DNA of 45,709 nt from contig CACZVC010000003.1 of NCBI GenBank assembly GCA_902784545.1, positions 1-45,709 on the forward strand. The letters are read 5' to 3'. The notes under the pieces were generated by a model. It saw only the letters and a list, made by a program, of their open reading frames with translations, was not told the DNA's origin and did not search any database. Below are positions 1 to 39,080 of this stretch, piece after piece (within the stretch, counting starts at the first letter, position 1; every line of letters starts with the position of its first letter). The DNA comes from an uncultured Ruminococcus sp. (lineage in GTDB: Bacteria; Bacillota; Clostridia; Oscillospirales; CAG-272). The position numbers were made by a program, and so were the translations under genes.

Positions 1-161
1 ATGATGATTTGCGGTTTCACCGCAAAATGATGAAATGAGTTCCGCTTCATGCGCCGAAGGCGCTCATCATTCGGCGAAGCCGTTCATCATGCGCGAAAGA
101 GCTCATCATGTGCCGCGTAAGCGGAACTCATAACTGCCGACTGTCCTTCAGAACAGTCGGC
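1..161. repeat. Micro-hairpin array A: ATGATGA/TCATCAT spacer motif alternating with short GC-rich hairpins; cut by the window edge
   Basis: TCATCAT occurs at 64-70, 84-90 and 103-109; its reverse complement ATGATGA occurs at 1-7 and 27-33. Each copy is followed by a different small hairpin: gcgcc-gaa-ggcgc 51-63, cggc-gaa-gccg 72-82, ccgc-gtaa-gcgg 113-124, gccgactg..cagtcggc 136-161. An outer perfect 11-bp inverted repeat joins atgagttccgc 35-45 to gcggaactcat 121-131. No credible ORF. Confidence 0.75.
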
Positions 162-207
162 ATATGGGCGGTCTTATTTTACAGACAAAACGTCTATTCT
201 TTAAACA

Positions 208-321
208 ACTCCTTCCGTCACGACGTAACGTCGTGCCACCTCCCTCAAAGAGGGAGGCAAATCAAGGCTCCCTCCCCGAGGGAGCTGTCAGCGTCAGCTG
301 ACTGAAGGAGTTTTTCTTCAG
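208..321. repeat. Structured intergenic repeat, family 2 (ccttccgtc - hairpin - gccacctccctc hairpin), inverted copy of 31458-31504
   Basis: Positions 211-257 match the reverse complement of 31458-31504 at 43/47 positions. Consecutive hairpins: acgacg-taa-cgtcgt 220-234, cctccctc-aaa-gagggagg 239-257, gctccctc-ccc-gagggagc 267-285, ctgaag..cttcag 302-321. Confidence 0.75.
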
Positions 322-347
322 TTTGTGCAGATTTATCAACAGTTATA

Positions 348-450
348 CGCATTCGGGCGCCGCCCCCACGGTGTGAACCCCCATTGCTCACCGGTTCGCA
401 ATGGGGAACCCCATAGCACCGAATGCGATGTTCCGACAGGGTCGGAACAT
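348..450. repeat. Structured intergenic repeat, family 3 (cgcattcgggcgcc... + ccgaatgcgaYgttccg hairpin)
   Basis: Positions 348-371 match the reverse complement of 31665-31688 at 23/24. A 10-bp hairpin atgttccgac-agg-gtcggaacat lies at 428-450, preceded by ccgaatgcg. An extra internal hairpin ccccattgc..gcaatgggg lies at about 379-406. Confidence 0.7.
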
Positions 451-552
451 AAAAGAAAATCGAACGCGGTCTTTCTGCGCGCAGCACCGCGGTCGGCGTC
501 CCCCCCCACCGCCCGACCGCGCGAATATTAAATATCAATAAACCTCTGTACG

Positions 553-584
553 CCGAATGCGATGTTCCGGTATTGCCGGAACAT
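553..584. repeat. Second copy of the ccgaatgcgatgttccg-loop-cggaacat hairpin module
   Basis: ccgaatgcgatgttccgg-tattg-ccggaacat has the same 17-nt 5' part as 419-435 but a different loop. Confidence 0.7.
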
Positions 585-616
585 AAAAACGCCCGTTGGC
601 AATCCGGGCGTTTTTT
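585..616. terminator. Bidirectional rho-independent terminator (serves the sigma/anti-sigma operon on the minus strand)
   Basis: aaaaacgcccg-ttggcaatc-cgggcgtttttt: an 8-bp GC stem flanked by an A-run and a T-run, 18 nt beyond the stop at 634. Confidence 0.75.
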
Positions 617-19943: not shown

Positions 19944-20059
19944 CTGCCCCCCACGAGCCAGTACGCCACGACAGCCAGCGCCCAGGCCCCGGCAATGCAC
20001 GCGGCGTCCGCCAGCGCCAGCGCCAAATTCATCAAAACACGCTAAAATATAGGAAAATA

Positions 20060-20160
20060 AAACATTGGGGAGCTTGGTGAAACGCCCGGCTGAGAGGAAA
20101 CACAGTTTCGACCCGTAACCTGATCCGGATAATGCCGGCGTAGGGAATGAGTACCTGAAA
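20060..20160 (+). promoter_or_regulatory. TPP (THI-box) riboswitch
   Basis: ggggagc...ggctgagagg...acccgtaacctgatccggataatgccggcgtagggaa matches the TPP aptamer consensus (CUGAGA; ACCUGAUCnGGAUAAUGCCnGCGnAGGGAA). It sits upstream of thiT. Confidence 0.93.
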
Positions 20161-20174
20161 TTGGGATGAGCTTG

Positions 20175-30017: not shown

Positions 30018-31454
30018 ATGGATAACAACGAAATCAAAGTTGAGAATCCGGTGAAAAAACCGAAGAAAAAGCCGGAAGCCGAAATTCTTCTCGACCGCCA
30101 GCTTGAAATGAAAACGAAAACAAGAAAAACGGATATCGCAATACTTGCGTCGTTCTGCGCTTTTATACTCTTTTTCGGCATAATGTTCTTCGTAATGCCC
30201 GACAAGGAGTATTCCGAAACGGAAAAACGCCCGCTGAAGCAGGCGCCGTCAATGACGTTTTCGAGGATAGGCGAGGATCTCAAACGCGACCTTAAGCTTA
30301 TGACGATGACCGAGACGGAAAAGAAGGCTTATATAGCCGAGCTCGGCGACAAGTATCTCGTCTTTTCCGACGAGATAGGCGATTATTACGCCGACCAGTT
30401 CCCGTTCCGCGACCAGCTCCGCACGGTCAAAGCCGCGGTCGAGATCGGGATGTTAAAGCAGGAGAACAACGACGTTTTGTTCGTCGGGAATTATCTTATC
30501 AAAAAAGACAGCGTATCCGGCGTGACGAAGGACGAGGACGGCACGTTCCGCGACAGAACGTATGAGGACGCCGCGGAGACGATAAAAACGAACGTCCATC
30601 TGCTTTCCGGTATCGAACAGAGCCTGCCCGAAGGCATAGATCTGCGCACCGCGGTAGCCGGAAGGACGGTTGACGCGGCAAAATCAAAGCTTCCCGCGGT
30701 ATTTCCGTACGAGGACACGCACGCGGACGTTTACTGGAAAGCTTATTCCGATCAGATAAACGCGGACTCGGTCAGCGCCGTTGAGCTCAAGGAAATGCTG
30801 AAAGCGCACTTTGAGAACGGCGAATACGTTTACTACAAGACCGACCACCACTGGACGTCGCTCGGCGCGTATTACGCGTACTGCGAGATAATAAAGTCGT
30901 ACGGGCTTGAGCCGTACCCGATAGATTCGTTCACAAGAGAAACGTATACGACGTCGTTTATCGGCACAACGTACGCAAAAGCCGGCGCCGCTTTCGGAGG
31001 AGCCGACACGATAGAGCTTTTCCGCTTCGAGGGCGACGAGGATTACACGACTAAGATCGTCAAAGGCGACAAGCTCACAACGCTCAAAGGCTTTTACAAC
31101 AAGGAAAAATACAGGGATATAAACGATAAATACAGCGTTTTCATCGGCTCCGACGACACGGGCGACGGCGGCAACAACGCCGTTACGCTCGTCACCAAAA
31201 ACGGCGAGAGCAGAAAGAAGCTGATACTTATAAAAGACAGCTTCGGCAACAGTATCGTTCCGTTCCTTGCAAGGCATTTCGACCTCGTGATACTCGACCT
31301 CAGAACGAGCTCGGAGGATTTCACGGGCTATCTGCAGGACCCCGACCTTGCGCATATCCTGGTACTGTATAATATGGAGACGTTCATGAACGACGCGAAG
31401 ATCTCAGACGCCGCGTCAAGGATCATCCCGTATTACAGAACGAAATCGCAATAA
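30018..31454 (+). CDS. DHHW family protein (AlgX/AlgJ-like SGNH partner of the MBOAT)
   Basis: GGAGGAGG RBS, an N-terminal TM anchor, the YYKTDHHWTSLGAYYAY signature and IKDSFGNSIVPF. Confidence 0.88.
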   Translation: MDNNEIKVENPVKKPKKKPEAEILLDRQLEMKTKTRKTDIAILASFCAFILFFGIMFFVMPDKEYSETEKRPLKQAPSMTFSRIGEDLKRDLKLMTMTETEKKAYIAELGDKYLVFSDEIGDYYADQFPFRDQLRTVKAAVEIGMLKQENNDVLFVGNYLIKKDSVSGVTKDEDGTFRDRTYEDAAETIKTNVHLLSGIEQSLPEGIDLRTAVAGRTVDAAKSKLPAVFPYEDTHADVYWKAYSDQINADSVSAVELKEMLKAHFENGEYVYYKTDHHWTSLGAYYAYCEIIKSYGLEPYPIDSFTRETYTTSFIGTTYAKAGAAFGGADTIELFRFEGDEDYTTKIVKGDKLTTLKGFYNKEKYRDINDKYSVFIGSDDTGDGGNNAVTLVTKNGESRKKLILIKDSFGNSIVPFLARHFDLVILDLRTSSEDFTGYLQDPDLAHILVLYNMETFMNDAKISDAASRIIPYYRTKSQ

Positions 31455-31456
31455 AA

Positions 31457-31554
31457 GCCTCCCTCCTTGAGGGAGGTGGCTCGACGGTACGTCGAGACGG
31501 AAGGAGCAGCCTTCCCCCGTTGGGGAAGGTGGCACGCAAAGCGTGACGGATGAG
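31457..31554. repeat. Tandem pair of family-2 structured repeat units (about 52 nt each)
   Basis: Unit 1 (31457-31508): gcctccctcc-ttga-gggaggtggc + tcgacg-gta-cgtcga + gacggaaggagca. Unit 2 (31509-31554): gccttcccc-gtt-ggggaaggtggc + acgc-aaa-gcgt + gacggatgagg. Unit 1 is the inverted homologue of 211-257. Confidence 0.75.
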
Positions 31555-31596
31555 GCGAACACCAGCCTCGCGGTCGTACCCATATCTGATGAGACT

Positions 31597-31630
31597 AAAA
31601 AAGCAACCTGACAAACCCGGTTGCTTTTTT
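31597..31630. terminator. Bidirectional terminator between DHHW and the AT-rich islet
   Basis: aaaaaagcaacc-tgacaaaccc-ggttgctttttt. Confidence 0.75.
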
Positions 31631-31631
31631 C

Positions 31632-31688
31632 ACGTTCCGCTCTGGCGGAACGTCGCATTCGGCGCCGTGGGGGTGGCGCCCGAATGCG
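31632..31688. repeat. Family-3 structured repeat, inverted orientation relative to 348-450
   Basis: acgttccgc-tctg-gcggaacgt (31632-31653) followed by cgcattcggcgcc-gtgggggt-ggcgcccgaatgcg (31654-31688). Confidence 0.75.
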
Positions 31689-31708
31689 CTTTTATGGGCG
31701 GATTACAC

Positions 31709-32146
31709 TTATAGTTGTTTAATCAATTCAATCAGTTCCTTTACTTGTGCTTCGTTTGCTTTTTGTCTGACAACTTGAAGCGCATTGAATTGTCCCGATG
31801 ACCAAATCGCCATTTTTTCAAATGTAATTCTCAAATCATTTGCATAATTTGAATCTATCCAGTCAGTGGTATCGCCTCTCGTTCTGCAGGCAAAAACAAG
31901 AATATCACAATAATCTGGAAACAATTTTAAACCTTTGTCATAGAATTCTGCGTAGTCGCCGGCAGTTATTATACCTATCTTTTTTCCGTTAAACTCTAAT
32001 TCCGCGGCTTCGTCGCCGGGCGAATCAACAATTGCCCCTCTTGCCAATTGTTTTGCGCCTTGATTTATCAATTCTTGAATTAAAAGCTTTAATGTCGTTG
32101 TTTTTCCGCTATTTCCTATACCGCGAAGTTTAATAATAATCGGCAT
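31709..32146 (-). CDS. Small stand-alone P-loop NTPase (145 aa), family not recognised
   Basis: Walker A GIGNSGKTT at residues 9-17 and a Walker-B-like CDILVFACRTRGD. AAGGAGA RBS. AT-rich. Confidence 0.75.
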   Translation of the reverse strand: MPIIIKLRGIGNSGKTTTLKLLIQELINQGAKQLARGAIVDSPGDEAAELEFNGKKIGIITAGDYAEFYDKGLKLFPDYCDILVFACRTRGDTTDWIDSNYANDLRITFEKMAIWSSGQFNALQVVRQKANEAQVKELIELIKQL

Positions 32147-36354: not shown

Positions 36355-36441
36355 GCGGGCGTGGCGGAACTGGCAGACGCGCAAGATTCAGGTTCTTGTG
36401 TTCGCAAGGACATGCAGGTTCAATTCCTGTCGCCCGCACCA
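36355..36441 (+). tRNA. tRNA-Leu (anticodon CAG), type II with a long variable arm and encoded CCA
   Basis: Acceptor gcgggcg/cgcccgc. D stem gcg/cgc with an 11-nt loop. Anticodon stem caaga/tcttg with loop ttCAGgt. 15-nt variable arm. T arm gcagg-ttcaatt-cctgt. Discriminator A + CCA. Confidence 0.93.
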
Positions 36442-38719: not shown

Positions 38720-39080
38720 CTCGATTTCATCTGAGGGCTTCGCCCGAAGATTTCACCGAGGCGCCCCTTAGGGTCCCCAAAACGAGCTTGCCGAGTTATG
38801 GGGAAAGGGGCAATGCCTCGATTTCACTTATCATACGATTTTGCGTTTGAATATGGGCTGTTCGGCTCCGGCAGAAATGTGTTTTAGTCAAGTCCGTTAT
38901 CGATATCCGCACTAGAAAAAGTCCGACGCGCAAGCGCCGGACTTTTTCAACTAAATCCGTCCTGGCGGACGGGTTAAATCCACTTCGTGGATGAAATCGC
39001 TTTCGCGATGAAATCCGCACTAACGTGCGGGATAAAGAGGACGGATTTGATCTCACCGCGGCGCCGCCGCGATTTCATTT
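38720..39080. repeat. Micro-hairpin array D: GATTTCAY / RTGAAATC spacer motif alternating with small GC hairpins
   Basis: GATTTCAT/C occurs at 38723, 38749, 38820 and 39071; the complement (T/A)(A/G)AATC occurs at 38952, 38974, 38991 and 39008. Hairpins: ccgtcc-tggc-ggacgg 38957-72, ccac-ttc-gtgg 38980-90, cgc-tttc-gcg 38998-39007, ccgcac-taac-gtgcgg 39015-30. Outer perfect 10-bp inverted repeat: aaatccgtcc 38953-62 / ggacggattt 39039-48. Confidence 0.7.

Follow-up and report, generated by a model that had tools for sequence, protein, structure and literature searches.

The 630-bp ORF-free region at the left end of the window (the whole 45,709-nt stretch analysed, contig C3 of its assembly) and its partner at 31.4-31.7 kb are, with a probability that we put at roughly 70 %, an accumulation site of small, gene-less, mobile palindromic DNA repeats beside terminators (Table 1). 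The assembly comprises 263 contigs (2.65 Mb, 51 % G+C) and is 96 % complete, its nearest relatives with a name being uncultured rumen Clostridia; all genomes compared are fragmented metagenome-assembled genomes. A first-pass annotation had described structured repeat families here with inverted homologues 31 kb away, and its sequence matches were recovered: 209-258 pairs with 31457-31506 (50 nt, 92 % complementary) and 348-371 with 31665-31688 (24 nt, 96 %), and the module CCGAATGCGAYGTTCCG-loop-CGGAACRT has three exact copies, at 419-450, at 553-584 and, inverted, at 31632-31662 (0 expected in 100 dinucleotide shuffles). The 47-nt pattern of the first family finds exactly 211-257 and 31458-31504, again with 0 expected in dinucleotide shuffles. 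The division into families has to be redrawn, however. The arms CGCATTCGG/CCGAATGCG are common to families 2 and 3, which make up the halves of one ~62-nt element, here called BC, and family 1 is a sub-unit of a ~150-nt composite.

Table 1. Repeats and terminators at the two loci of the window
Feature	Position	Strand	Remarks
MITE-like composite, subfamily 2	174..325	+	Aligned with 17 other copies in the genome; ends approximate, placed by analogy with copies on C75, C19, C87 and C25
Composite unit 1 (family 1)	208..258	+	Best R1 match, 78.5 bits
Unit 1, third segment	208-216	+	ACTCCTTCC
Unit 1, variable hairpin H4	217-235	+	
Unit 1, hairpin H5	239-257	+	CCTCCCTCaaaGAGGGAGG; CCA between H4 and H5
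Composite unit 2, inverted homologue of unit 1	266..311	-	R1 match 266-310, 35.7 bits
Unit 2, hairpin H1	267-285		GCTCCCTCcccGAGGGAGC; arms GCTCCCTC..GAGGGAGC
Unit 2, hairpin H2	287-302		GTCAGCgtcaGCTGAC; GTCAGC..GCTGAC
Unit 2, third segment	303-311		TGAAGGAGT
BC two-hairpin element, long form (families 2 and 3)	347..450	+	Fold z -5.7
Long BC, arms of hairpin 1	348-361 and 419-427		
Long BC, hairpin 2	428-450		
Nested 37-nt hairpin module	376..412	+	AACCCCC..GGGGAACCCC; within the loop of BC hairpin 1
Hairpin with C8 loop	488..522	.	Core GGCGTCCCCCCCCACCGC, common to five other loci
Solo 3' half of BC (3' arm of hairpin 1 and hairpin 2)	551..584	+	Fold z -5.0; abuts terminator
Bidirectional intrinsic terminator	585..616	.	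A-tract, CGCCCG..CGGGCG, T-tract; read from sequence
Solo A-type unit, inverted copy of 209-258	31457..31506	-	R1 match, 73.9 bits
Solo P-type unit	31509..31555	-	CCTTCCCC..GGGGAAGG, small hairpin, GGATGAGG; R1 match, 36.9 bits
Bidirectional terminator between convergent genes	31597..31630	.	Read from sequence
Short canonical BC	31632..31690	-	13-bp hairpin with C-rich loop, and hairpin 2; fold z -7.1

Several further repeats crowd the left locus. Window positions 1-135 hold an array of TCATCAT plus mini-hairpin units, with near-identical copies on C101 (13478-13612, 98 %), C190, C84, C78 and C173; on another sample's contig the array reaches ~45 nt further left. Positions 135-162 form a 28-nt hairpin (TGCCGACTG..CAGTCGGCA), the first ~28-34 nt of which recur at seven other loci, at least five of them directly adjoining the TCATCAT array. 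The 18-nt core of the C8-loop hairpin is found exact at its five other loci, framed there by GCGCGCGCG arms and a conserved upstream block. The terminator at 585-616 serves an anti-sigma-like gene (634-1470, - strand).

Family 1 is a ~50-nt, triplex-type unit in which a pyrimidine/purine hairpin is combined with a small, variable one and with a third segment that mirrors the purine arm. Two such units, set back to back in inverted orientation and bounded by short outer arms, make up the composite (~135-150 nt), the ends of which, CAGCTTGAAGACAAA and CAGAGTGCAGACAAA (reverse complement), are terminal inverted repeats matching at 12 of 15 positions. When folded as a single DNA strand, the composite at 174-325 gives four hairpins within a closing stem of 9 bp (-36.3 kcal/mol, z -7.2; other strand z -6.6), and the fold z-scores of the repeats are -5 to -7 on both strands. 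About 45 composite loci were found with nhmmer in the 2.65-Mb genome, many of them at contig ends. The main subfamily (135-137 nt) is nearly identical between loci; composite copies are 91-100 % identical within the genome, and their best matches in other species reach 76-93 %. A covariance model of the unit, R1, gives 72 matches in this genome and 1-85 per genome in eleven congeners. Unit arms are of the types CCTCCCTC/GAGGGAGG, GCTCCCTC/GAGGGAGC and CCTTCCCC/GGGGAAGG; the second loop is 14-31 nt long and contains a hairpin of 11-30 nt. The two dominant types in the genome, A (CCTCCCTC) and P (CCTTCCCC), stand in tandem as solo units at 31457-31555. No T-tract follows the hairpins of the units, which therefore do not qualify as intrinsic terminators; the true terminators at 585-616 and 31597-31630 adjoin them.

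The mirror segment is a consistent part of this design. When allowed triads are defined as G.G, A.A or T.A in antiparallel arrangement, nine arm types found beside DUF559 genes (see below) have 7-8 of 8 triads allowed, against 3-6 when the wrong side is taken. Unit 1 of the window's composite has 7 of 8. In a permutation test of the mirror match, 6 of 2000 trials came up to the observed value. A census of mirror units in the genome returned 196, of which 94 have an intervening hairpin; the corresponding numbers for a shuffled genome are 12 and 1.

The compensatory differences that had first drawn attention to these repeats are as described, with CACGACG..CGTCGTG in one copy of the first family against CTCGACG..CGTCGAG in the other, and ATGTTCCG..CGGAACAT against ACGTTCCG..CGGAACGT in the second. 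Larger alignments extend the pattern. Among 116 distinct unit rows, which are related to one another and were, in this first alignment, fitted to the R1 model, 92.9 % of cells are paired (78 % in shuffles, 39-66 % in slid controls), changes on both sides are seen in 13 of 17 pairs, and compensatory cells number 230 against 64 expected. The BC alignment (15 rows) is 96.8 % paired, with double changes in five pairs. Since substitutions keep the stems in these larger sets, the central claim of the first-pass annotation, that change between copies is compensatory, survives.

The flanks of the composites carry a clear signature of insertion. Six full-length copies (on C12, C36, C53 and C198, and at two loci of the congener genome G008) lie between flawless direct repeats of 20-31 bp, each of which is a complete, locus-specific, terminator-like hairpin adjoining the element's ends. 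Between the left duplicate and the CTTG motif that marks the left arm lie 3 nt (CAA or CAG, the first bases of the element), and nothing separates the right duplicate from the last base of the composite; the upstream A-tract stays with the left duplicate and the T-tract with the right one. Two more copies have 10-bp duplications, one of them 9/10, so that clean duplications (10 bp or 20-31 bp) are present in 8 of 15 full-length copies; three further ones have diverged hairpin duplicates and four have no flanking duplication. The window's own composite shows none. As a control, none of 300 random positions reached 15 matches. It is very improbable, in our estimate, that the repeats are passive debris, that is, palindromes multiplied at terminators by gene conversion or replication slippage, with compensatory changes arising through repair within the palindrome and with no dedicated enzyme. 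Internal deletions between short direct repeats do occur, as do chimeric copies and flipped loops, and TMECO sites, a class of triplex-forming repeat, are tied to genome instability (PMC4666352); but such processes would hardly produce the precise ends just described, the identical 135-137-nt copies at unrelated loci, or the same insertion signature in two other species.

Comparison between genomes is in keeping with insertion. At the site corresponding to 31.4 kb, A and P units are confined to this genome (G000), G001 and G002, while BC is common to G000, G002 and G003, the contig of G001 ending before that position; G003 keeps only BC, and six other congeners have neither units nor BC. The A-type unit is thus absent at the orthologous site in G003, G007, G010 and others. 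In congeners, one plain terminator stands at each of the orthologous gene ends, among them the orthologues of the C12 insertion site, which are too diverged to give the exact pre-insertion sequence. A search for allelic empty sites by exact-protein matching recovered none, the only other strain found being filled as well, and we therefore infer insertion from the duplications together with the cross-species comparison. In a strain sampled elsewhere (locus L064, sample ERZ28613008), where the neighbouring protein is identical, the left half of the composite differs from that in the window and 30 nt of the nested 37-nt module are missing. The upstream neighbour of the L064 composite is a GGGtGRT-type gene with a terminator rather than the TCATCAT array; the breakpoint lies within the composite between H1 and H2 and reflects either a repeat rearrangement or an assembly join. 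At a further locus, C36:5272-5390, the composite lacks 28 internal nt (AGACAAA..AAACGGCG) that are present in the full-length copy which another strain has at this site.

The position of the composites relative to genes bears on what they do. All copies had been said to lie at the 3' ends of genes in convergent intergenic regions; copies do lie downstream of genes and both window loci are convergent, but genome-wide only about half are, with 11 convergent, 10 tandem and no divergent contexts among 21 loci classifiable by crude ORF calls (background gaps, 19 % convergent and 24 % divergent). REP elements are known to have roles at mRNA 3' ends, and the modules might likewise be functional 3' UTR RNAs, acting as 3'-end protectors or terminator enhancers with the fold under selection; RNA was one of the forms, beside cruciform/ssDNA, that the first-pass annotation had named. 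The avoidance of divergent gaps, the very stable hairpins and the clear compensatory change would all suit such a role, which we nevertheless consider unlikely. There is no orientation preference with respect to neighbouring genes (seven same, six opposite in tandem contexts) and both strands fold equally well. Unit stems are Watson-Crick in 1614 of 1752 cells (92 %), with G.T pairs (14) no commoner than A.C (35), a comparison that is weak as a test for RNA in that one amplified subfamily dominates it. Matches range from one to 85 among congeners, and orthologous genes manage without units; the target duplications mark the repeats as insertions, and a model of RNA hairpins leaves the conserved mirror segment without a role. 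Finally, a search of 1-700 and 31400-31760 against Rfam 15 returned no match, even at E up to 10; elsewhere in the window a TPP riboswitch (20056-20163), a tRNA (36355-36438) and a Gut-1 RNA (38948-39019) score above the Rfam gathering thresholds. Taken together, the duplications, the 1-85 variation, the presence/absence pattern, the lack of orientation bias, the near-pure Watson-Crick stems and the mirror segment point to mobile DNA and not to strand-specific RNA, and they favour a DNA-level structure of mobile repeats over selection on a folded RNA.

BC is a separate element. Its hairpin 1 (13 bp) reads CGCATTCGG-GCGCC, a C-rich loop and GGCG-CCGAATGCG, and hairpin 2, YGTTCCG-loop-CGGAACR, follows directly. 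The compact form is found at 31632-31690 and on C179, and ~20 copies occur in congeners; at 347-450 hairpin 1 is interrupted by the 37-nt module at 376-412. The genome contains at least 14 copies of this module, as a rule within the loops of other hairpin modules. In several congeners some BC copies are orthologous, some have flipped loops and some a different hairpin 2. We note that in G011 the orthologue of the window's left end (L207, G011:C26:4500-10500) has a 3-kb insert between its GGGtGRT-type gene and its sigma/anti-sigma pair. A BC copy stands at either end of the insert, the two being in direct orientation and identical in their left flanks. This segment between the copies encodes SHOCT-domain and unknown proteins and provides no partner gene for BC. 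BC lacks a candidate partner, and different species share many of its copies at orthologous positions; the case for its mobility is therefore a weak one.

No autonomous element with the composite's ends was found in this genome. Transposases of the Y1/RAYT (PF01797), IS110 and DUF772/IS1182 types are absent from this 96 %-complete assembly, and two other candidates were rejected: the ends of the IS30-family (rve) element are unrelated and it is itself inserted into a composite, and DDE_Tnp_1 is represented by one broken copy. The IS30-family gene lies at C201:3020-4137, with its own inverted ends, right after H5 of the composite that it interrupts.

A different kind of gene keeps company with the units. 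DUF559 (PF04480) genes are found in this genome on C113, C177 and C103, all flanked by triplex-type units: that on C113 lies within an array of A-type units with a period of 117 nt, and those on C177 and C103 are flanked by P-type units, the same type as at 31509-31555. Crude ORF calls for the whole genome give no case among 2204 with units on both sides, and 2.4 % with units on one side. In relatives (41 genomes), units flank 20 of the 21 DUF559 loci scanned, in most cases on both sides and otherwise on one, and the third segment usually faces the gene. On the DUF559 protein tree the repeat type takes 5 changes, the minimum, whereas shuffles average 10.2 and none of 200 was as low; genomes with two DUF559 lineages hold both repeat types. 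The proteins keep a D..E-x-D..Q-H core and match the uncharacterised 'endonuclease-like' structure 3HRL. DUF559 cassettes share the inner units of the composites but not their outer arms. The units on the two sides of the gene are inverted relative to each other in some lineages and directly repeated in others, which is at odds with a simple transposon bounded by terminal inverted repeats. Our literature searches found no account of DUF559-flanking repeats or of hairpin-sized duplications.

That DUF559 is the mover of the repeats is something we infer from this association, and the association has another possible reading, which we regard as doubtful: the genes could be homing-endonuclease-like parasites that settle in pre-existing arrays, the repeat type being their homing site, with the repeats spreading by other means. 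Repeat type would then follow DUF559 lineage, as it does; gene position within the unit arrays is variable, gene-less arrays with the same unit order lie beside the C113 gene, and no DUF559 was detected in two repeat-rich genomes, G010 (78 unit matches) and G003 (39), which counts against a strict partnership. These are 90 % and 78 % complete, however, and it is only in such incomplete, fragmented assemblies, where repeat-flanked genes assemble poorly, that DUF559 is missing. Moreover, this genome offers no other mobilizing enzyme with matching ends, and variable, structure-sized duplications fit a junction-cutting nuclease and not a classical DDE transposase. G010 also contains a species-specific ~205-nt repeat in identical copies at L105 (G010:C13:1-420) and eight other contig ends; it combines two triplex-type units that differ in their arms (GGAGAAGG and GGGGAAGG) and has the same outer-arm motif, AGACAAAG.

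The PD-(D/E)XK fold is that of both Vsr and the junction resolvases. If the repeats are mobile DNA, the composite would insert next to terminators and duplicate either 10 bp or the entire target hairpin, and BC would be a second, older two-hairpin element with the third module nested within its loop. The insertion or recombination machinery would recognize folded DNA (hairpin, cruciform or triplex) and in this way keep the stems paired, although the palindromes may also correct themselves. For the structure to be recognized it would have to form in DNA in vivo, and cleavage would fall at the two bases of the extruded target hairpin: if an extruded cruciform were nicked twice at its base, the duplication would be as long as the target palindrome, the two points being 20-30 bp apart in B-form DNA but adjacent in a four-way junction. 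The DUF559 PD-(D/E)XK nuclease would be the candidate enzyme. We thus offer, tentatively and with a small chance of its being right, the proposal of an undescribed class of mobile DNA in which a DUF559 (Vsr-like) protein recognizes a lineage-specific hairpin/triplex repeat and cuts at the two bases of the extruded hairpin or cruciform. This would provide a joint function for orphan repeats of the BoxC/PIT/TMECO type, for which some 30 years have brought to light neither a mechanism of spread nor a partner protein, and for DUF559, a very large family without an assigned function. The Clostridial triplex-type variant has a clear insertion signature, in that the whole hairpin of the target is duplicated, and this, combined with the lineage-specific DUF559 linkage, leads to a bench-testable prediction of the nuclease cut site. 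On a practical level, stacks of such repeats break metagenome assemblies (12 of 34 loci are at contig ends) and give rise to spurious small ORFs.

Parts of this picture are familiar from other systems. The REP/REPIN-RAYT systems, reportedly the subject of work by Nunvar in 2010 and by Bertels and Rainey in 2011, resemble the present one in having short extragenic palindromes downstream of genes, as single copies, inverted pairs and clusters, and a small enzyme gene flanked by its own repeat type. They differ in that this genome has no Y1 (IS200-like) transposase and its repeats no GTAG-type conserved head, in that the candidate partner here has an unrelated PD-(D/E)XK fold and, for REPINs, in that target duplications are present here. 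REP-targeting IS1397/IS110-type elements and class C group II introns also choose structured targets, and they encode their own enzyme; to our knowledge, they do not duplicate the target hairpin. MITEs such as Correia/NEMIS, RUP and ERIC (PMC3184786) are likewise gene-less elements of 100-200 nt with imperfect terminal inverted repeats, target duplications and long stem-loop folds that lie between genes and nest in one another, but the duplication here is variable in length, being 10 bp or the full target hairpin (20-31 bp), and no insertion sequence was found whose ends would make it the parent. IS1272, too, targets inverted-repeat or terminator structures of varying sequence; it replaces the target inverted repeat, leaving no duplication (PMC5678879), and encodes its own enzyme, unlike the gene-less composites. 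A comparable duplication arises in CRISPR adaptation (PMC4940900), where Cas1-Cas2 makes staggered nicks at the two edges of a palindromic repeat and the inserted DNA ends up between two full copies of it. In the present case no cas genes are involved, insertion is into terminators unrelated to one another, and what is inserted is a fixed element of 135-150 nt.

The unit itself is built like the BoxC/PIT/TMECO repeats of E. coli, other Proteobacteria and cyanobacteria (Holder et al. 2015, PMC4666352; earlier work by Bergler, Bachellier and Hoyne/Maher is cited therein). Both have a G/C-rich pyrimidine arm, a loop, a purine arm and a second purine-type segment that mirrors the first; both are multi-copy, intergenic and without strand bias, differ sharply in copy number between close relatives, and are tied to locus variability with no transposase nearby. 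The purine-type triplex attributed to these repeats cannot form in RNA (PMC4666352). The units described here fall outside the published consensus, CCCTCNCCC-N3-6-GGGNGAGGG-N3-GGGNGAGGG, and their second loop contains a hairpin of 11-30 nt in place of 3 nt, so that the published finder, which allows loops of 1-6 nt, would miss them. The host is a rumen Clostridia bacterium, and the units build a composite with target duplications and flank DUF559 genes, neither of which features in PMC4666352. The question whether the families match an already described REP/BOX-type element therefore has a divided answer: they share with BoxC/PIT/TMECO a triplex design, the triplex being in this case a prediction, and carry it in sequences of their own.
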